Shown piece by piece: positions 3,735 through 16,099 of a stretch of 64,000 nucleotides of DNA (within the stretch, counting starts at the first letter, position 1; the number at the start of each line of letters is the position of its first letter). The stretch covers positions 302,261 to 366,260 of the forward strand of contig JBAZGN010000002.1 in NCBI GenBank assembly GCA_041652815.1, read 5' to 3'. The DNA comes from Candidatus Omnitrophota bacterium. Its GTDB lineage: Bacteria; Omnitrophota; Gorgyraeia; Duberdicusellales; 4484-171. The notes below the pieces were generated by a model. That model was not told where the DNA came from. It searched no databases and saw only the letters and a list, made by a program, of their open reading frames with translations. The position numbers were made by a program, and so were the translations under genes.

Positions 3735-4775
3735 ATGATATCAAAAGAAAAAATTGATTTAGCTACTGTTTCTGAGGAAAGCCTTCTCGATCTTCGCATA
3801 AAAGATTTGCCCTTAAGCATAGAAGGTACCTGGCTTTCTGACTGCGTGAAAGAGCTTTATCAGGAACTTGAATCAAAAGGCATAAAATTTAAACCGGTTT
3901 GCTACTTGGCCGATGAATGGTTTTCCCCTGACCAGGACCCTCAAATCGGCATACCATTCTTTTTGGCCCACCCTGCCCTTATAAAACTTGAAAAAAAGAT
4001 GATGCGTGAAGCTGAAGGGGAGACAAAATCCTGGTGTATGCAGTTGTTACGCCATGAAGCCGGGCATGCCATAAACTATGCTTATAAGTTATACCAATCG
4101 CCTGACTGGAAAAAAATATTCGGACAGTTTTCCAAAACCTACGCAGATGCCTATAGGTTTAAGCCTTATAGTAAAAGTTTCGTAAGGCACCTGGAAAAAT
4201 ATTATGCTCAATGCCATCCTGATGAAGATTTTGCCGAGACTTTTGCTGTGTGGCTTACCCCGGGATTTGACTGGCGCGCTCAATATAAAGGCTGGAAGGC
4301 AGTTGCCAAGCTTCAGTTTATAGAGGAGGTCATATTAGTAATTAAAGATAAGCCGCCCCTGGTTAAAAATGGGAAGAAATACCGTAAAGCTTCTTCGTTG
4401 CCCCTTACTCTTAAGAATTATTACAAAAAGAAAAAAATCAATTTAGCCGAAGAATTTCCCGAATTCCATGATACAAATTTGGCAAAAATATTTGCCGATA
4501 AACATAAAGATGATACCAAATTACCATATGCCTACAGTATAATAAAAAGATATAAAGATACTATTTGCAATAATGTTTCAATCTGGACAGGAGAGAAAAA
4601 ATTCATTATAAATGATTTGCTTGAAACTTTAATTGAAAGGTGCAAACAGCTTAATTTATTAAACCCGATGTCAGAGCAGCAGGCGGTGCTCAAGATATCA
4701 ATCTACGTTACCGCACTTATAATGAATTATGTTAATACTGGAAGTTTTTCGAGGAAAAAATGGATAAAAAACTGA
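3735..4775 (+). CDS. putative zinc metallopeptidase-like protein (HExxH motif HEAGH plus downstream DEDFAE)
   Basis: HEAGHAINY and HPDEDFAETFAVWL motifs; overlaps the start of the ATP-grasp gene (translational coupling). Confidence 0.45.
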   Translation: MISKEKIDLATVSEESLLDLRIKDLPLSIEGTWLSDCVKELYQELESKGIKFKPVCYLADEWFSPDQDPQIGIPFFLAHPALIKLEKKMMREAEGETKSWCMQLLRHEAGHAINYAYKLYQSPDWKKIFGQFSKTYADAYRFKPYSKSFVRHLEKYYAQCHPDEDFAETFAVWLTPGFDWRAQYKGWKAVAKLQFIEEVILVIKDKPPLVKNGKKYRKASSLPLTLKNYYKKKKINLAEEFPEFHDTNLAKIFADKHKDDTKLPYAYSIIKRYKDTICNNVSIWTGEKKFIINDLLETLIERCKQLNLLNPMSEQQAVLKISIYVTALIMNYVNTGSFSRKKWIKN

Positions 4776-5785
4776 AAGTTTTATTAGTTTTTGATTGTCC
4801 CTATGCAACTGCGCGGGGTTATGATTTTGTCAAAGAATTCAAAGAACCGGATTGGGACACCCAGCTTAACGTTTATGAAGCGCTTCGCGAAAATGGCCAT
4901 GAGGTAAGCTTGCTTGGAGTGTATGACAATATAAATCTTCTTATCGAGGAGATAAATCAAAACAAACCGGATGTTGCGTTTAATATCATGGAGGGTTTTA
5001 GAAAAAAGACTAACCTCGAAAGGAATGCCGCGTGGCTGCTGGAAATGTTAAATGTACCTTTTACCGGAGCAAGCCCGGCAGCGCTTCTTGTTTGTAACGA
5101 CAAAGCTTTAAGTAAAAAGATTTTAAGTTTCCATAAAATACGCGTGCCCAATTTTCACACTTTTCACAGAAACAGAAAACTTAAGTCTATCAAACGGCCT
5201 AAGCTTCCTGCTATAGTAAAGCCTTTGTGCGAGGAGGCTTCTGTCGGTATATCTCAGGCGTCAGTAGTGGACAATGAAGCTGCCTGCCTTGAAAGAATAA
5301 AATTCATACATGAGAAAATGAATATGGATGCTATTGTCGAAGAATATATTCCCGGGAGAGAGTTCTATGTAAGTATTATCGGCCATAAAATACTTGAAGT
5401 TTTACCCATAAGAGAGATGAAGTTTGGGGAAATTTCCGATCCGGAAAGTAAAATCGCAACTTACAAAGCAAAATGGGACGATGAATACCGGAAGAAATGG
5501 GGGATACAGAATGTTTTTGCTAATAACATGCCTGAGGGGTTAGAGAAAAAACTTACACATATATGTAAAACAGCTTATCGCGCATTAAATTTAAATTCTT
5601 ATGCCCGCTTTGACCTAAGGGTTGAGGCTTCCGGCAGGATTTATGTTTTGGAAGTAAATGCCAATCCTTGTTTGGCAAAAGACGACGAAATGGCCCAGTC
5701 AGCGGAAAAAGCAGAAATCCCATATAGCAAGCTTATCCAAAGAATTCTTTCCCTTGCGTTAAATAATACCGATAACGGCAAATAG
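4760..5785 (+). CDS. ATP-grasp family ligase (D-alanine--D-alanine ligase / RimK-like fold)
   Basis: N-terminal pre-ATP-grasp, central EEYIPGREF and C-terminal LEVNANP motifs typical of Ddl-type ATP-grasp enzymes. Confidence 0.6.
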   Translation: MDKKLKVLLVFDCPYATARGYDFVKEFKEPDWDTQLNVYEALRENGHEVSLLGVYDNINLLIEEINQNKPDVAFNIMEGFRKKTNLERNAAWLLEMLNVPFTGASPAALLVCNDKALSKKILSFHKIRVPNFHTFHRNRKLKSIKRPKLPAIVKPLCEEASVGISQASVVDNEAACLERIKFIHEKMNMDAIVEEYIPGREFYVSIIGHKILEVLPIREMKFGEISDPESKIATYKAKWDDEYRKKWGIQNVFANNMPEGLEKKLTHICKTAYRALNLNSYARFDLRVEASGRIYVLEVNANPCLAKDDEMAQSAEKAEIPYSKLIQRILSLALNNTDNGK

Positions 5786-8220: not shown

Positions 8221-8517
8221 ATGGAAATAATCTGTCCGCAATGTAAAAGTGGGAGCGTGGTAGAGGGGAAAATCTTCAATCAGGCAGATTATATTGAGCC
8301 ACGCGCCTGTTTCAGGCCTAACGGATTACCTTTTTTTGCTTCGCTTGTAACGAACATCTGGATAAAAAATAAATTTTTTGCCTGTTCTGTCTGCGGTTTT
8401 ATTTGGGCTAAAGATAACGAAAAAGATGTTAGAGAAAGTTTGTCCAGGATAGCTACGCGTTACGTACAAAAGAAATCAGAATCAAAACCCGACGAAGTTT
8501 ACGAGCTTGGTAAATAG
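8221..8517 (+). CDS. small hypothetical protein with CxxC...CxxC zinc-ribbon-like cysteines
   Basis: CPQC ... CSVC pairs; strong RBS GGGAGG upstream. Confidence 0.35.
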   Translation: MEIICPQCKSGSVVEGKIFNQADYIEPRACFRPNGLPFFASLVTNIWIKNKFFACSVCGFIWAKDNEKDVRESLSRIATRYVQKKSESKPDEVYELGK

Positions 8518-8539
8518 AGGGCTCCGAAAAACTATGTTG

Positions 8540-8666
8540 ACACCGCAAAAACGCAAAATTCCGCAAAGACGCAAAAAGAAACACAGAATAAGATTCCGTG
8601 ATTTTTCGGTATAATTTTCGTATTTTTCTTTTGCGCTTTTGCGGCACTTTTGCGACTTTGCGGTGT
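8540..8666. repeat. palindromic hairpin element, copy 1 (arms of ~4 degenerate CGCAAAA octamers)
   Basis: Left arm acaccgcaaaaacgcaaaattccgcaaagacgcaaaaag is the reverse complement of right arm cttttgcgcttttgcggcacttttgcgactttgcggtgt; near-identical element at 11672..11777. Confidence 0.8.
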
Positions 8667-8700
8667 AAAAGGACTTTTTCAGAGACCATAAATAAAAGAA

Positions 8701-8728
8701 TTGACAAAAAGTGGTACTAAGCTATAAT
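8701..8728 (+). promoter_or_regulatory. sigma70-type promoter TTGACA-N16-TATAAT driving the riboswitch/btuFCD transcript
   Basis: Exact consensus hexamers with 16-nt spacer, ~20 nt upstream of the riboswitch aptamer. Confidence 0.6.
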
Positions 8729-8744
8729 TCATTCGTTCTTTAAA

Positions 8745-9027
8745 ATTTATAAATGAATTTTGTGGTGCTCGAAAGAGCATAAAAGGGAATTCCGTGTAAT
8801 TCGGAAGCACTCCCGGTGCTGTAACCTGACTCTTTTTACAACAAAAGAGAACCTTTAATATTAAAAGCCACTACCATAAAGTGGGAAGGCGTTAAGGGTA
8901 AGGGAAGCCAGAAGACCTGCCGCAAATATTTGAATCTTTAGGTTTTGCGTGGAACATAACCTAGATTTTTCATTTTCCGGGCTAAGAAAACGAGGATGCA
9001 CCCCGACTGACACAGTCGGGGTTTTTT
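8745..9027 (+). promoter_or_regulatory. cobalamin (B12) riboswitch with intrinsic terminator expression platform
   Basis: AAAAGGGAAttccGTGtAAtTCggaaGCaCTCCCGgtGCTGTAA core and GCCACTaccataaaGTGGGAAGGC element match the cobalamin riboswitch consensus; followed by hairpin ccccgactgacacagtcgggg + T-run at 9001..9027; precedes btuF. Confidence 0.8.
9001..9027 (+). terminator. rho-independent terminator (riboswitch expression platform)
   Basis: GC stem ccccgactg/cagtcgggg followed by tttttt. Confidence 0.7.
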
Positions 9028-9052
9028 ATTTTATAGCGATTGAGAAATAGTT

Positions 9053-9904
9053 ATGCAGATTAAATATAAGATAGCGGCAATTATTTTTGTATTTTGTTTT
9101 AGTTACACAAGCTATCTTTTTGCACAAAATAAACAATTGCGGATAATTTCCCTTGCTCCTGCTACAACGGAAATCTTATTTGCCTTAGGCTTAGATAAAG
9201 AAATCGTAGGGGTGAGTGAATTTTGTAACTATCCTAAAGAGGCAGAGGCCAAAGAAAAAATCGGCACTTTCAGCCGGCCGAATATCGAAAAGATATTATC
9301 AATTAAACCGGATTTAATCTTTTGTACAGGCCTTGAGCAGTCACCAGTTATTGCCAAGCTAAAACAGTTAAATTTAAATATTTTTGTAAGTGACCCGAAA
9401 AATATAAATGAGCTTTTTCAGTCAATTAGAGAGATAGGAAAATTGACCAACAAAGAAAAAGAGTCTACGGCGCTTATTGATAGCATGAGAATCCGGATAG
9501 AAAAAATCAATTCTCAGGTCTCACGAATTAGCAAAGAAAGAAAGCAAAAAGTTTTTATTGAAATTTGGTATAGCCCTTTAACTACAGTAGGCCGCGGTTC
9601 ATTTATAAATGAACTAATAGAGTTTTCCGGAGGCGTAAATATAACTTCTGATATCAAGAGTGCCTATAGTTCTGTAACCTCTGAGGTAGTTCTGAAACGT
9701 AACCCTGATTGTATCATTCTTGCCTATATGGGAAATTTAAGCCCAATAGAGCAGGTAATGGCTCGGCCCGGATGGAACAATATTGCTGCAGTTAAAAATA
9801 AACGCGTGTATAACGATATTGATCCCGATACATTACTTCGGCCCGGGCCGCGTATAGTAGAAGCGCTTTATGGGCTGCACAAAAAATTATATCCCGATGA
9901 ATAA
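9053..9904 (+). CDS. btuF: periplasmic cobalamin/siderophore-type ABC substrate-binding protein (BtuF-like)
   Basis: Signal peptide, class III periplasmic binding protein pattern (RIISLAPATTEILFALG); under B12 riboswitch; upstream of FecCD permease and ATPase. Confidence 0.75.
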   Translation: MQIKYKIAAIIFVFCFSYTSYLFAQNKQLRIISLAPATTEILFALGLDKEIVGVSEFCNYPKEAEAKEKIGTFSRPNIEKILSIKPDLIFCTGLEQSPVIAKLKQLNLNIFVSDPKNINELFQSIREIGKLTNKEKESTALIDSMRIRIEKINSQVSRISKERKQKVFIEIWYSPLTTVGRGSFINELIEFSGGVNITSDIKSAYSSVTSEVVLKRNPDCIILAYMGNLSPIEQVMARPGWNNIAAVKNKRVYNDIDPDTLLRPGPRIVEALYGLHKKLYPDE

Positions 9905-10853
9905 AACGGTAAAAAGAAAAATAATATTGCTGGCGGCTATTTTGATTTTGGCAGTTATTTTTGGCATCTTAAAGGGGTCGGTTGATTTAAATTTTTCCGA
10001 GCTTTTCAGCAAAGAAAACCGCCAGATACTTAATCTTCGGCTGGTACGTGTAATTCTTGCAATTATTGCTGGTTCCGGATTGTCGGTTTGTGGAATAGTG
10101 CTTCAGGCAATATTACGAAACCCTCTTGCCGAACCATATCTTTTAGGCACATCAAGCGGCGCAGGGCTCGGGGCAGTGATTGCGTTGACTGTGGGAATTG
10201 CAGTTACCTATATTCCTTTTGCTGCATTTATCGGAGCAATATTGAGCACTTTACTGGTTTATTATATCAGCAGGCACCGCGGAAAAATCGGAGTGCAATC
10301 TCTTATCCTTTCAGGAATAATTGTTTCAATAGCTTTTTCCGCAATTATTTTATTTCTGCTTTCAACTTCTGAAAGAGAAACATTGCATGGAATATCCTGG
10401 TGGTTATGGGGTAATCTTGAAGTTTTTGATTTTAAATTGCTTTTGATAGTAGGTGCCGTTGTTGCACTCGGTATATTTACCGTATACATGTTTTCACAGG
10501 ACTTAAACGCAATAAGCATAGGTGAAGAAGAAGCAATTCATTTAGGCATAAATGTAGAATTAATGAAAAAAATACTACTTTTTTTAGTTTCGTTGATTAC
10601 TGCGGCAATAATCTCGGTTTGCGGAGTTATTGGTTTTGTAGGTTTGATAATTCCTCATATGGCCAGGCTGATCATCGGCCCAAATCATAGATTATTAATT
10701 CCTGTTTCGTGCATACTTTCATCAGCCTTTATGATTTTGTGCGATTCGTTCGCGCGAACTCTTTTTTCGCCTTCGGAAATACCGATAGGAGTAATTACCG
10801 CGATAGTCGGCGCACCGATATTTATCATTCTTTTAAAAAAGAGCGAGGCTTAA
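9897..10853 (+). CDS. btuC: FecCD-family ABC permease (BtuC-like)
   Basis: Multi-TM FecCD permease; start ATG 9897 overlaps the btuF stop (track ORF 9870 has N-extension). Confidence 0.75.
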
Positions 10854-10857
10854 TAGT

Positions 10858-11689
10858 AATGGATATATTATTAAAAGCAGATAAAATTTGCGGCGGCTAT
10901 ACGAATAAGCCTGTGATAAATAATGTTTCTCTTGAAATAAAACAAGGGGATTTTTTAGGCATTATCGGGCCAAACGGAGGAGGAAAATCTACGCTACTTC
11001 GGCTAATGAGCCGGGCATTAACACCAACCGAAGGAAGAATTGTTCTTTCGGGCAAAGATTTAAGAAAGATAAGCCCTAAGGAGGTTGCTCAAAAAATAGC
11101 TTTCATACCGCAGCTGACATTGATTAATTTTTCTTTTACTGTATGGGAAATTGTGCTTATGGGTAGAATTCCTCATCTTTCACGGATGCAGCCGGAAGGA
11201 AAAAAGGATTTTTCAATTGCTGAACGGGCTTTAAGCTTAACTGACACGCTGCACTTAAGAAACAGGAAGATTGATGAGCTTAGCGCAGGGGAGCGCCAGC
11301 GTGTAATTATTGCCAAAGCGCTCGCCCAGGAACCCCTTCTTTTATTTCTGGATGAACCTACTTCACACCTTGATATTGCCCATCAGGTTCAAACCTTGGA
11401 TCTATTGACTGATTTAAACCAGAAGAATAACCTTTCGATAGTTATCGTGCTGCATGATTTAAATCTAGCCAGCGAATACTGCAAAAAAATAATTCTGCTG
11501 GATAATGGTAAGATATTTAAAGAAGGCACACCAGATTACGTTTTGACCTATCAGAACATCGAAAGTTTATATAGGACAGTTGTTGTGGTAAAAGATAATC
11601 CCGTAACATCAAAGCCGCATATCCTTTTAATTCCGGGGAATAAAAAGTTGGAGCATGGGGAAAACAGCGTTACACCGCAAAACCGCTAA
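10858..11689 (+). CDS. btuD: ABC transporter ATP-binding protein (BtuD/FecE-like)
   Basis: Walker A GPNGGGKST, signature LSAGERQRVIIAKAL, Walker B LLFLDEPTSHLD; real start ATG at 10858 after RBS (track ORF 10709 is an upstream extension); last codons lie inside palindromic element 2. Confidence 0.8.
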
Positions 11690-11777
11690 AATCCGCAAAG
11701 ACGCAAAAAGGAAAATATATAAATTTTTCCTTTCTTCCTTTTTGCGTTTTTGCGGTACTTTTGCGTTTTAGCGGTGT
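11672..11777. repeat. palindromic hairpin element, copy 2
   Basis: acaccgcaaaaccgctaaaatccgcaaagacgcaaaaag ... ctttttgcgtttttgcggtacttttgcgttttagcggtgt; same family as 8540..8666; overlaps btuD stop codon and the annotated N-extension of the next ORF. Confidence 0.8.
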
Positions 11778-11802
11778 AAAAAAGTTTTTCAATGATCTTA
11801 GG

Positions 11803-12399
11803 ATGCAAACAAGAATAATACTTATAAGGCACGGCGAAACCCGGGCTAACAGGCAAAGGAGATATGTTGGTGTAACCGAAAGCGAGCTTACTTCTTACGG
11901 TAAGTATCAGGCGAGATGCCTTAAAAAAAGAATAGCCAAAGACACAATTGACAGGATTTTTGTAAGCCCTTCAAGGAGAGCGCTTGATTTTTCTAAGATT
12001 GTTTTTGGCAACAGAAAAAAAGAAATATTTGAGAGCTTACAGGAAATGAATTTTGGAATTTTCGAAGGGTTAACCTATTCGCAAGCCTTAAAAAAATATC
12101 CGCAAGCTTACGGCAGGTGGCTTAAAAATCCGCAGCGTTTTAATATCCCAAAGGCGGAGGCTTTAATTGATTTTAAAGCGCGCGTTTTTAGTGCATTAAA
12201 AGAAGTTATTTCCAATAATAACGGCAAAACCATTGCCATGGTTACGCATGGCGGGCCGATAATGCTGATAGTGGGTAAGATTATGAAATCAAAGAATCTA
12301 TGGAAGGTAATACCCGGCCTTGCAAGTATAAGCATTATCGAATTTAATAAAAGTAAACCAAAGATTTTAACGTTAAACGACGTAAGCCATTACAAATAA
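11803..12399 (+). CDS. cobC: histidine phosphatase family, alpha-ribazole phosphatase-like
   Basis: IILIRHGET phosphoglycerate-mutase-family motif; cobalamin gene neighbourhood (cobU, cobT, cobS). Confidence 0.6.
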   Translation: MQTRIILIRHGETRANRQRRYVGVTESELTSYGKYQARCLKKRIAKDTIDRIFVSPSRRALDFSKIVFGNRKKEIFESLQEMNFGIFEGLTYSQALKKYPQAYGRWLKNPQRFNIPKAEALIDFKARVFSALKEVISNNNGKTIAMVTHGGPIMLIVGKIMKSKNLWKVIPGLASISIIEFNKSKPKILTLNDVSHYK

Positions 12400-12401
12400 A
12401 T

Positions 12402-12923
12402 ATGGGCAAAATTATTTTTATTTTGGGCGGAGCGAGGAGTGGAAAAAGCAGTTTTGCATTGAAGTTAGCCAAGAAATCAAAAAAAACAAAAGTTGCTTTT
12501 ATCGCAACCGGTGAGGCGCGCGACAACGAAATGAAGCAACGTATTTTGTTTCATAGACGTTCTCGGCCAAGCAATTTCAAAACCTTTGAGCAAGCCCATA
12601 ATCTTTCAGGGTTACTTAAAAAAATCGCATCCGGTTTTGATGTAATAATTATAGATTGTCTTACGCTTTTTGTATCAAATCTTTTGCTAAAAAAATATGA
12701 TGAAAAAAAGATAGCCAATGAGATAAGTAAAATGTTAACAGTACTCAAAAAAACACACACAAAAGCAATTATTGTCTCTAATGAGGTTGGTTTAGGTATT
12801 GTGCCGCAGACTAAACTTGGCAGAGACTTTCGCGATATTGCCGGCAAGGTTAATCAGGTAGTTGCACAAGGCGCAGACAATGTATTTTTTATGGTTTCAG
12901 GGCTCCCCTGGAGGGTTAAGTAG
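12402..12923 (+). CDS. cobU: adenosylcobinamide kinase / adenosylcobinamide-phosphate guanylyltransferase
   Basis: P-loop ILGGARSGKS, 173 aa, CobU/CobP family layout. Confidence 0.75.
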   Translation: MGKIIFILGGARSGKSSFALKLAKKSKKTKVAFIATGEARDNEMKQRILFHRRSRPSNFKTFEQAHNLSGLLKKIASGFDVIIIDCLTLFVSNLLLKKYDEKKIANEISKMLTVLKKTHTKAIIVSNEVGLGIVPQTKLGRDFRDIAGKVNQVVAQGADNVFFMVSGLPWRVK

Positions 12924-14091: not shown

Positions 14092-14099
14092 AATAACCA

Positions 14100-14290
14100 T
14101 GCTCCAAGATACAATAACCAAACAATGACCAATAATCAAATTCCAATAACCAAACAAAACTCAATCTTCCCGTTTGGTCATTGGTTATTGAATATTGAAA
14201 TTTGTTTGGAGCTTGCCCGTCAATTTGCTGTAGGCAAATTGACAAGGTCTCGTCAAATTCAAGGAATTTGACGGATATCTTGGTTATTGG
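14100..14290. repeat. cluster of nested inverted repeats / paired hairpins between cobT and cobS
   Basis: ccaataaccaaacaa vs ttggttattg arms; perfect palindrome gtcaatttgc-tgtag-gcaaattgac followed by cgtcaaattc-aagg-aatttgacg. Confidence 0.6.
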
Positions 14291-14306
14291 TTATTTAAGG
14301 TTGAAA

Positions 14307-15047
14307 ATGATTAGTTTATTATTAGCTTTACAGTTCTTAACGATTATTCCTGTCAAAGTTAAAAATTTTACGGAAAAAAAACTTATTATTTCAATGATAT
14401 TTTTTCCTGTAATCGGCCTTTTTATCGCGCTGCTATTGGCCGCGTTGAACAATTTTTTCTTATCTATTGGTTTTAGTGATTTTACCACCAATATCATTCT
14501 GGTCGTCGCTCTTGTTGTAATTACCGGCGGTATGCATCTCGACGGGCTTTCCGATACATTCGATGCGATATCAAGTACAAAACCAAAAGAAACTATGCTT
14601 GCAATCATGCGCGATTCGCGCTGTGGAGTTATGGGGGTTTTAAGTATCATCTGCGTATTATTGCTGAAAATTTCTTTTCTTTCTTCTGTAAATTCTATCG
14701 ACAAAATAAGCGCGCTTATTTTAATGTGTATTCTTGGCAGATGGTCACTCGTATTTTTGCTTTTTATGTTTCCGTATGCGCGCAAAGAAGGCAAGGGCAA
14801 AATTTTCAGCGAAGGAATCAATCTAAAAATATTTATTACCGCAACGATTTTTTCTTTAACCTGCGCATTCATATTTTTTGGAATAAATGGCCTGTCAATT
14901 ATGGTTTTAGCCGTATTGCTTGCTTTTATATTCGGTAAATTCATGGTCAAAAAAATCGAAGGTATTACGGGTGATAGCTTAGGCGCTGTTTGTGAGTTGA
15001 TTGAGGTTATAGTGTTATTTGCAGCAGCGATTTTAACAAATAGTTAA
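14307..15047 (+). CDS. cobS: adenosylcobinamide-GDP ribazoletransferase (cobalamin synthase)
   Basis: MISLLLALQFLTIIP N-terminus and polytopic membrane protein typical of CobS; RBS aagg upstream of ATG 14307 (track ORF 14202 is N-extended). Confidence 0.75.
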   Translation: MISLLLALQFLTIIPVKVKNFTEKKLIISMIFFPVIGLFIALLLAALNNFFLSIGFSDFTTNIILVVALVVITGGMHLDGLSDTFDAISSTKPKETMLAIMRDSRCGVMGVLSIICVLLLKISFLSSVNSIDKISALILMCILGRWSLVFLLFMFPYARKEGKGKIFSEGINLKIFITATIFSLTCAFIFFGINGLSIMVLAVLLAFIFGKFMVKKIEGITGDSLGAVCELIEVIVLFAAAILTNS

Positions 15048-15049
15048 CA

Positions 15050-15180
15050 ACAAATCACAAATTACAATGTACAAATTACAAACAAATCACAATTCCAAAA
15101 TCACAATAAACAAACATCTTTTTGTGATTTCGGAATTGTTTATTGTCTATTGTTTGTGATTTGTGGTTTGTGCATTGTGG
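15050..15180. repeat. long imperfect palindrome (~65-bp arms) downstream of cobS
   Basis: acaatgtacaaattacaaacaaatcacaattccaaaatcacaa mirrored by ttgtgatttcggaattgtttattgtctattgtttgtgatttgtggtttgtgcattgt. Confidence 0.6.
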
Positions 15181-15205
15181 TTTGGAAAACAGGGAGGATG
15201 AAATT

Positions 15206-15928: not shown

Positions 15929-15974
15929 CTGCCGCAAGGCAGGCGTGCAGGAAAAATGTTAGGCCGAATTTGAC

Positions 15975-16097
15975 CCCCCACCACTTTTAGAAAGCATCTT
16001 TTTGCAAAATGCGGTGGGCTTGAGAGAAAAGGAATGTCTTATAGAAAACCATTCATCACTAAAAGTGGTGGGGGGTTCAATTCGCACTATCATTTTT
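15975..16097. repeat. 20-bp inverted repeat with ~88-bp spacer
   Basis: tgaccccccaccacttttag ... ctaaaagtggtggggggttca. Confidence 0.7.
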
Positions 16098-16099
16098 CT

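Follow-up and report, generated by a model that had tools for sequence, protein, structure and literature searches.

Two palindromes in a cobalamin operon

The window (the whole 64-kb stretch of DNA analysed here, from a Candidatus Omnitrophota bacterium) contains an operon in which btuF, btuC and btuD are followed by a cobC-like phosphatase gene, cobU, cobT and cobS. The present study concerns two copies of a palindromic element in this operon, one just upstream of its promoter and riboswitch and the other at the end of btuD, and the relation of these copies to cassettes encoding nucleases of the GxxExxY family. An earlier reading, made from the sequence only, had described the two palindromes together with the riboswitch, btuF, btuC, btuD and the gene downstream, and all of these were recovered, the riboswitch with 92.5 bits. 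Both palindromes are present at 8540–8666 and 11672–11777, as that reading had them, but the true inserts are longer (ca 8517–8694 and 11647–11802), and neither the outer arms nor the connection with a nuclease family had been noticed. The features of the locus are the following (no strand is assigned to the parts of the elements).

8511 to 8516, and again 8689 to 8694: TAAATA, a possible 6-bp target-site duplication of copy 1, uncertain, from the alignment with the relative L199
8517 to 8694 (178 bp): full insert of copy 1, from comparison with the empty site of L199, edges good to a few nucleotides
8540 to 8578: core left arm of copy 1, four CGCAAA units, ACACCGCAAAA ACGCAAAA TT CCGCAAAG ACGCAAAAAG
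8579 to 8628: loop of copy 1, 50 nt, AT-rich, with a small internal hairpin
8629 to 8666: core right arm of copy 1, four TTTGCG units
8701 to 8728, forward strand: sigma-70-type promoter of riboswitch-btuFCD, perfect TTGACA-16-TATAAT, beginning 7 nt past copy 1
8746 to 8938, forward strand: cobalamin riboswitch aptamer, with its terminator at 9000–9022
11647 to 11802 (156 bp, exact): full insert of copy 2, placed after the last conserved codons of btuD and before the ATG of cobC (11803)
11648 to 11689, forward strand: element-encoded BtuD tail, 13 codons LEHGENSVTPQNR plus stop, replacing the CKQE* of relatives, from an alignment of 16 BtuD proteins
11672 to 11710: core left arm of copy 2, four CGCAAA/CGCTAA units
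11738 to 11777: core right arm of copy 2, four TTTGCG/TTAGCG units

Each copy is a long imperfect hairpin. The core arms of the two copies are 79–92% identical in pairwise comparison, and each is built from four CGCAAA-type units, in agreement with the earlier count of about four repeats per arm in inverted pairs. Within an arm the units are spaced 8, 10 and 8 nucleotides (nt) apart, the central spacer measuring 2 nt in one arm and 3 nt in the other, and the loops of the two copies (50 vs 27 nt) are unrelated in sequence. Outside the core, an outer inverted repeat, GAG..C.GAAAAAC ... GTTTTTC.G..CTC, adds ca 25 nt per side to each element, and this repeat is also seen in many copies elsewhere. 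The open reading frames (ORFs) inside the inserts are spurious read-throughs only. With up to three mismatches allowed, the arm 18-mer CCGCAAAGACGCAAAAAG has five matches in the window, where 0.10 would be expected, and all of them fall within the two elements, which are also the sole sites in the window with clusters of CGCAAA/TTTGCG. The calculated RNA folding energies are −51 kcal/mol for copy 1 (z-score −6.6 relative to dinucleotide shuffles) and −58 kcal/mol for copy 2 (z-score −8.8).

Copy 1 follows the orf98 stop codon and precedes the −35 box of the promoter for the riboswitch and btuF. This promoter is also conserved in L199 and L116, both of which are without the element (the sampled loci are labelled L followed by a number). 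The product of orf98 (8221–8517) is small and rich in cysteine, has CxxC pairs and matches no Pfam family. L116 and L199 have this gene, and in L114/L115 it is missing, so that BacA runs directly into the riboswitch promoter region.

At the other site, the last four BtuD codons are swapped for 13 codons of copy 2. The BtuD of the window has 276 amino acids, ending in ...KKLEHGENSVTPQNR*, compared to 262–267 in relatives, and a comparison of the C-termini gives a KKCKQE* ending in the relatives and the element-derived tail in the window. The translations and the alignment thus bear out the earlier suggestion that the arms encode the VTPQNR tail of BtuD as well as the extension at the N-terminus of the next ORF. 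In the window btuD and cobC, which formerly overlapped, are 113 nt apart. For the host, copy 2 would change the C-terminus of BtuD, remove the overlap of btuD with cobC and hence any translational coupling, and add a strong hairpin between the cistrons, by which the transcript could be stabilised or processed. Copy 1 would place a hairpin between the upstream gene and the btu promoter.

Empty sites and a dispersed hairpin family

Both window sites are insertions. The gene order BacA-(orf98)-riboswitch-btuFCD-cobC-cobU-cobT(-cobS) is common to the window and to three relatives, L199 (BtuD 88% identical), L114/L115 (85%) and L116/L117 (84%), and all of these are empty at both positions. For copy 2, a BLAST comparison shows that window segments 9138–11646 and 11803–12916 are contiguous in L115 (3282–5788 and 5789–6902), and the site is likewise empty in L199, L114 and L116. 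In the relatives, btuD encodes 267 amino acids with the ending ...KKCKQE*, and its overlap with cobC is 16 nt. At the site of copy 1, L199, which is the closest relative, has GGTAAATA|AAAGGATTGACA where the window has GGTAAATA[178 bp]AAAGAATTGACA, and on the right-hand side the homology to L115 restarts at 8693. A further pair of a filled and another site is given by L032 vs L016/L061. Over the 18.5 kb that were compared, the L001 contig and the window are identical, and the sample that it comes from also yielded two of the three empty-site relatives.

The elements belong to a dispersed family. The sequence-only reading had proposed an insertion like that of a MITE, a miniature inverted-repeat transposable element, and had named uniqueness to the two window sites as what would weaken this idea. 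A scan of one genome per species for a degenerate arm pattern in which 25 bases are specified gave instead at least 112 matching stretches elsewhere, in ca 23 assemblies (species-level metagenome-assembled genomes, MAGs) among the matches listed. The many copies in other genomes and the three relatives empty at both sites speak for the proposed MITE-like insertion. No locus fetched in the species-representative scan was a close match to the window. Among the matches listed, the host labels are nearly all Candidatus Omnitrophota or uncultured "Planctomycetales/Planctomycetia" bins sharing the family. Matches to the arm pattern also occur in short contigs of bins from other phyla, L015 (Patescibacteria) and L105 (Saprospiraceae), for which mis-binning or inter-phylum transfer is possible.

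The usual copy has four units per arm and termini of the form (T/G)ACACCGC...GCGGTGTAAA, with the conserved ends ACACCGC...GCGGTGT, and the asymmetry between a 2-nt and a 3-nt central spacer is seen in 22 of the 26 copies that could be scored on both arms. Copies short of units on one arm exist as well (L063, L068, L042). Many ORF-less copies share the loop motif ATCGACGAGAAAA and the outer GAAAAAC/GTTTTTC arms. Copies are usually found a few to ca 40 nt from a gene end, in tight intergenic gaps and in either orientation. The flanks were usable for 73 elements. The neighbouring genes are co-directional in 51 cases, divergent in 10 and convergent in 5, and a further 7 elements overlap the end of a called ORF. 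There is no clear orientation bias relative to co-directional neighbours (18 sense vs 29 antisense). An all-against-all clustering of the 704 ORFs in the 775 kb of sampled loci gave only generic families and no recurrent neighbouring transposase. We found no description in the literature of the element sequence or of such repeats in Omnitrophota.

One assembly, CAYMKG, holds an expanded subfamily of near-identical ORF-less copies with at least 20 sampled loci and ca 180 nt of common sequence. Its contigs often end in the element, and the assemblies are therefore broken there. On a single contig of 7.6 kb, four copies are interspersed with housekeeping genes. In L075 and ca 20 CAYMKG loci, a conserved asymmetric flank of ca 180 nt is found in the same orientation between housekeeping genes, and the neighbours, as named from their translations, are proS, ispG, rseP and dxr.

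It is important to consider the structure of the hairpin. Across 30 copies from many genomes the paired positions of the units are almost invariant, and the 2-nt linkers between the units are variable, yet kept mismatched. Among 37 non-identical complete copies, the four linker positions form a Watson–Crick pair in 14, 1, 5 and 5 cases, compared to 20.9, 11.0, 18.4 and 13.7 for random re-pairing, with a permutation P of at most 0.008 at each position; the test ignores the relatedness of the copies and the P values are therefore optimistic. The deficit runs the same way at all four positions, and the combinations A.C and G.T dominate, with G-C almost absent. Since the linker positions are kept mismatched, the hairpin is a chain of helices of 6–7 bp split by these mismatches. 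Escape from RNase III or SbcCD, avoided recombination between the arms, and flipped-out bases for recognition by a protein are candidate reasons, and none of them amounts to a firm explanation.

As to a role in RNA, the sense strand is the more stable one in 26 of the 51 co-directional contexts and the antisense strand in 25 (P=0.40), and a strand-specific RNA role was therefore dropped. The earlier suggestion of regulatory or terminator hairpins likewise gains no support. The terminator scan reports the riboswitch terminator at 9000–9022 and neither element as a whole, and the GCGGTGT of the element is followed by AAAAGGAC ahead of any T run. The organism's own terminator at 9000–9022 has a 10-bp GC-rich stem and a U-tract, a shape unlike that of the elements. 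At the gathering threshold of Rfam, the cobalamin riboswitch is the sole pass in the window; at a relaxed E-value only sub-threshold plant miRNA precursors appear, which is a generic effect of long hairpins.

Other hairpin families are present in the same region. Long hairpins with CCAATAA/CCAAAC and ATCACAA units are found at 14092–14306 (cobT/cobS junction) and 15046–15185 (between cobS and the next gene), and since the genes at these two junctions overlap in L114 and L116, those hairpins are also insertions. The family of the 15046 hairpin and that of another one at 15951–16098 recur in other Omnitrophota loci. L199 has hairpins of its own between btuC and btuD (3871–4016 of that locus, CTAAAC/CTCAAA units) and between cobC and cobU (5435–5508, CCACGGG units). 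These are at other junctions; from lineage to lineage of one operon, therefore, both the colonised junctions and the hairpin families differ. GC-rich hairpins of other families are nested within CGCAAA arms (L094:3571–3735, L104:1034–1219, L051 and L077), which means that hairpin elements insert into one another.

Nuclease cassettes with the same arms

We now turn to the members of the family with large "loops" that carry genes. In L059 (879–1347), arms with 4+4 CGCAAA units flank an ORF that matches TIGR04256 (GxxExxY) with 131.9 bits and PF13366 (PDDEXK_3) with 126 bits. In L198 (2454–2916), from an Omnitrophota assembly that also holds ORF-less copies, the arms again have 4+4 CGCAAA units: ACACCGCTAAATCGCAAAAGGCCGCAAAACCGCAAAA is followed by a GxxExxY gene of 125 amino acids, and TTTGCGCCTTTGCGGAATTTTGCGCCTTTGCGGTGT comes directly after its stop codon. 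The arms of the window are 77–90% identical to those of L198 and L059, that is, as close to them as the left and right arms of the window are to each other, and they are of the same family. In the assembly CAYNXT, ORF-less (L004, L028) and ORF-carrying (L059) copies have a common variant terminus, GTCACCGC. The relation is visible even in gene calls, as over-long GxxExxY genes start with arm-derived peptides, for example VTPQNRRRKAPQK and TAKTQK. VTPQNR, which occurs among these arm-derived sequences, is the same peptide as in the BtuD tail of the window.

A second GxxExxY gene in L198 (3365–3845), 500 nt downstream of the first, is located between arms of CACAGAT units. The two L198 cassettes, with CGCAAA and CACAGAT units, flank a single gene of the SRPBCC family, and an AbiEii/helix-turn-helix pair resembling a toxin–antitoxin system adjoins.

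The location between unit-repeat arms is general for GxxExxY genes. A metagenome scan with an alignment of three proteins gave 302 relatives, from which 80 loci were kept, 65 of them with enough flanking DNA. For each gene, the 110 nt upstream were compared with the 160 nt downstream, and the best inverted repeat between them was scored. A repeat with a score of at least 28 flanks 66% of the 65 GxxExxY loci, compared to 2.2% of 719 control ORFs of similar size (Mann–Whitney P=5e-31). The arm units include CGCAAA, CGCAGA, CACGGA, CACAGA, CACTGA, CAGGAA and others, and termini of the type TGCAACC...GGTTGCA are common. When each protein was paired with its nearest neighbour (below 90% identity), the unit class was the same for 37 of 52, with 13 expected, and none of 2000 permutations gave more than 25.

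The putative catalytic residues are conserved across 66 proteins, with D and E present in 100% and K in 98%. An AlphaFold model of the nuclease, with a predicted local distance difference test score (pLDDT) of 96.2, has its best matches in Cas4 SSO0001, enzymes like lambda exonuclease, and MGME1; a profile search gave weak matches to Cas4, and a sequence search of solved structures gave none. In the one classification that we found for PDDEXK_3, its function is listed as unknown (PMC3424549). In the literature on GxxExxY/PDDEXK_3 we found no description of flanking arms or repeats.

The loops of the window copies, of 27 and 50 nt, hold no gene, and these copies are therefore ORF-less relatives of the cassettes and not cassettes themselves. 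Remnants of gene ends were looked for in the two loops and none was convincing. In the sampled loci there are ca 30 ORF-less copies for each gene-carrying one. It was also attempted to orient the window copies by the 2-nt/3-nt spacer, which was given up as the asymmetry is inconsistent among the gene-carrying cassettes. As for the sites of the cassettes, one in L150 (1390–1930) lies, from a reading of the sequence, between two apparent tRNA genes, and in L141, L149 and L157, from different organisms, cassettes lie directly upstream of an apparent dnaK. These positions hint at preferred or ancient insertion sites.

Origin of the elements

From these results, we consider it probable that the palindromes of the window are separate insertions of ORF-less, MITE-like foldback repeats, which would be gene-less derivatives of GxxExxY cassettes and would likely have been mobilised in trans. 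Gene-less derivatives of the cassettes would have spread to new sites by themselves, the most likely scenario being that the GxxExxY nuclease recognises the units of the arms and acts in trans on elements without a gene. The hairpin may form in single-stranded DNA or in RNA and may matter for the reaction. Copy 1 landed between the orf98 stop codon and the btu promoter, and copy 2 at the btuD/cobC overlap, where it would place a hairpin of ca −58 kcal/mol in the intercistronic RNA.

Several points weigh against this explanation. An HMM (hidden Markov model) search found no GxxExxY gene in the window. To our knowledge, PD-(D/E)XK proteins of ca 125 amino acids are not known as transposases. TAAATA is repeated at the ends of copy 1 and has no counterpart at copy 2, for which reason the target duplication of copy 1 is uncertain. 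The gene-carrying cassettes are without the outer GAAAAAC/GTTTTTC extension of many ORF-less copies and also without their loop motif; in view of the absence of the outer arms, the line of descent is not a simple one. That unit type goes with protein relatedness could be due to common descent or host lineage and not to recognition. Finally, in L092 (1090–1838) CGCAAA arms surround ca 650 nt with an ORF resembling a winged helix-turn-helix regulator and a small ORF, and no GxxExxY gene, and the arms could therefore be a vehicle for which the nuclease gene is merely a frequent cargo.

Other explanations have to be weighed against the same data. The hairpins could chiefly be structures selected by the host (a terminator, insulator, mRNA stabiliser or RNase III site) that tune btu/cob expression, with the spread being secondary, as in the enterobacterial REP/BIME case. 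The hairpins are indeed strong and lie a few nucleotides from gene ends in short intergenic gaps, copy 1 just upstream of a promoter and copy 2 between cistrons, and the near-invariant units with their actively kept mismatches point to selection on structure. However, three close relatives run the same operon with overlapping genes and no elements, both orientations occur, and divergent gaps (10) outnumber convergent ones (5). The lack of any stability advantage of the sense strand, the shape unlike that of the organism's own terminator and the absence of Rfam matches other than generic long-hairpin ones also argue against it, and we judge this explanation unlikely. Only slightly less credit is given to the idea that the window elements are full GxxExxY cassettes that decayed in place and that ORF-less copies are immobile by themselves. 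It would account for the equal similarity of window and cassette arms, and direct-repeat units favour deletions, of which the unit-deficient arms of L063, L068 and L042 are examples; yet ORF-less copies of several genomes share outer arms and a loop motif that cassettes do not have, the near-identical ORF-less CAYMKG subfamily is found at many loci and often at contig ends, and ORF-less copies are in ca 30:1 excess in the sampled loci.

A conventional enzyme, either a RAYT/IS200-IS605 Y1 or a DDE transposase, could alternatively mobilise the family, in which case the link to GxxExxY would be incidental. The hairpin-forming ability, the lack of a clear target duplication at copy 2 and the subterminal repeats resemble single-strand transposition systems. 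But no recurrent transposase-like ORF family stands beside the elements in the sampled loci, the arms are not short palindromes headed by GTAG/CGTC, and the association of GxxExxY with unit-repeat arms is strong and general, which makes this a quite improbable alternative. The most remote of the explanations, suggested earlier as a composite cassette, sees the two copies as termini of a composite transposon that brought the promoter-riboswitch-btuFCD block into the locus. Although the copies bracket this 3-kb block in direct orientation, the block has the same place and order in L114–L117 and L199, all without either element, and it was therefore in place before two independent insertions. Furthermore, neither copy is a half-end, both being complete hairpins, and unrelated hairpins occupy other junctions of the same operon. 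The composite cassette thus has next to no probability in our view.

Relation to known systems

In kind, the elements are ordinary small dispersed hairpin repeats. Like bacterial MITEs (Correia/NEMIS of Neisseria, RUP, Nezha, and RPE of Rickettsia), they are non-coding, multi-copy sequences with inverted repeats and a size of ca 150–180 bp, well within the ca 500 bp of a MITE, they show presence and absence at orthologous sites, they insert at gene boundaries and rewrite gene ends, and they have gene-carrying relatives with the same ends. Those relatives encode, however, a PD-(D/E)XK nuclease of 125 amino acids, with only a putative role as transposase, and not a recognised one; the arms consist of four tandem units of 8–10 nt, and the target duplication is ambiguous. 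These unit arms with kept mismatches and the tie to a large uncharacterised nuclease family are what is unusual.

With REP/BIME/REPIN sequences and their RAYT enzymes the elements have in common that they are intergenic hairpins, conserved across related species, that are often in operons and can affect mRNA stability. The arms are, however, direct repeats and not palindromes of 20–40 nt with a GTAG or CGTC head. No RAYT (Y1) was found as a recurrent ORF family in the sampled 775 kb, whole genomes not having been searched. With arms that are not themselves palindromes and that have no GTAG/CGTC head, and with no RAYT found in these loci, the elements fall outside the REP definition.

In architecture the elements most resemble the eukaryotic Foldback (FB) transposons, in which long inverted arms are likewise composed of short subrepeats in tandem, the middle varies and may or may not contain coding sequence, and copies without a gene are numerous. 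These belong to another domain of life, are of kilobase scale and presumably use other enzymes, and the likeness is one of architecture that implies no homology. In the intervening sequences of 23S rRNA (Coxiella IVS/S23p), a stem of inverted ends surrounds a small ORF of unknown role (PMC4990558). These are also small selfish elements, a resemblance and not a membership, as the present elements are not in rRNA, the ORF is a four-helix bundle there and a PD-(D/E)XK protein here, and the window copies have no ORF. Integron attC sites and gene cassettes were rejected as a match: the flanks in the window are syntenic genes of a housekeeping operon, copies are single, scattered and in both orientations, and the whole arm is conserved, whereas attC conserves only the R/L boxes and occurs in arrays beside an integrase, at the 3′ end of promoterless cassettes. 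With respect to the GxxExxY cassettes (TIGR04256/PF13366) themselves, the window copies have the arms of 2–4 tandem units with conserved termini and lack the gene between them.

The match of the arms to GxxExxY cassettes points to a poorly known kind of mobile DNA. For annotation, the family rewrites gene ends, as here with the altered C-terminus of BtuD and the false N-terminal extension of the next ORF, it separates genes that overlap in relatives, and it breaks metagenome assemblies; systematic gene-call errors around the elements in Omnitrophota MAGs therefore follow. More broadly, several families of unit-repeat hairpins are colonising the gene junctions in the compact operons of this uncultured phylum. 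GxxExxY is a large family named by NCBI, and its flanking arms provide a concrete candidate substrate and a testable mobile-element hypothesis. We tentatively raise the possibility, for which the odds are still somewhat unfavourable, that GxxExxY (PDDEXK_3) proteins are the nucleases of widespread undescribed prokaryotic foldback elements, that the unit arrays with their obligatory mismatches are the recognition sites, and that gene-less derivatives have settled at Omnitrophota gene junctions. If this is true, a named family without a function would gain a role and a testable substrate.

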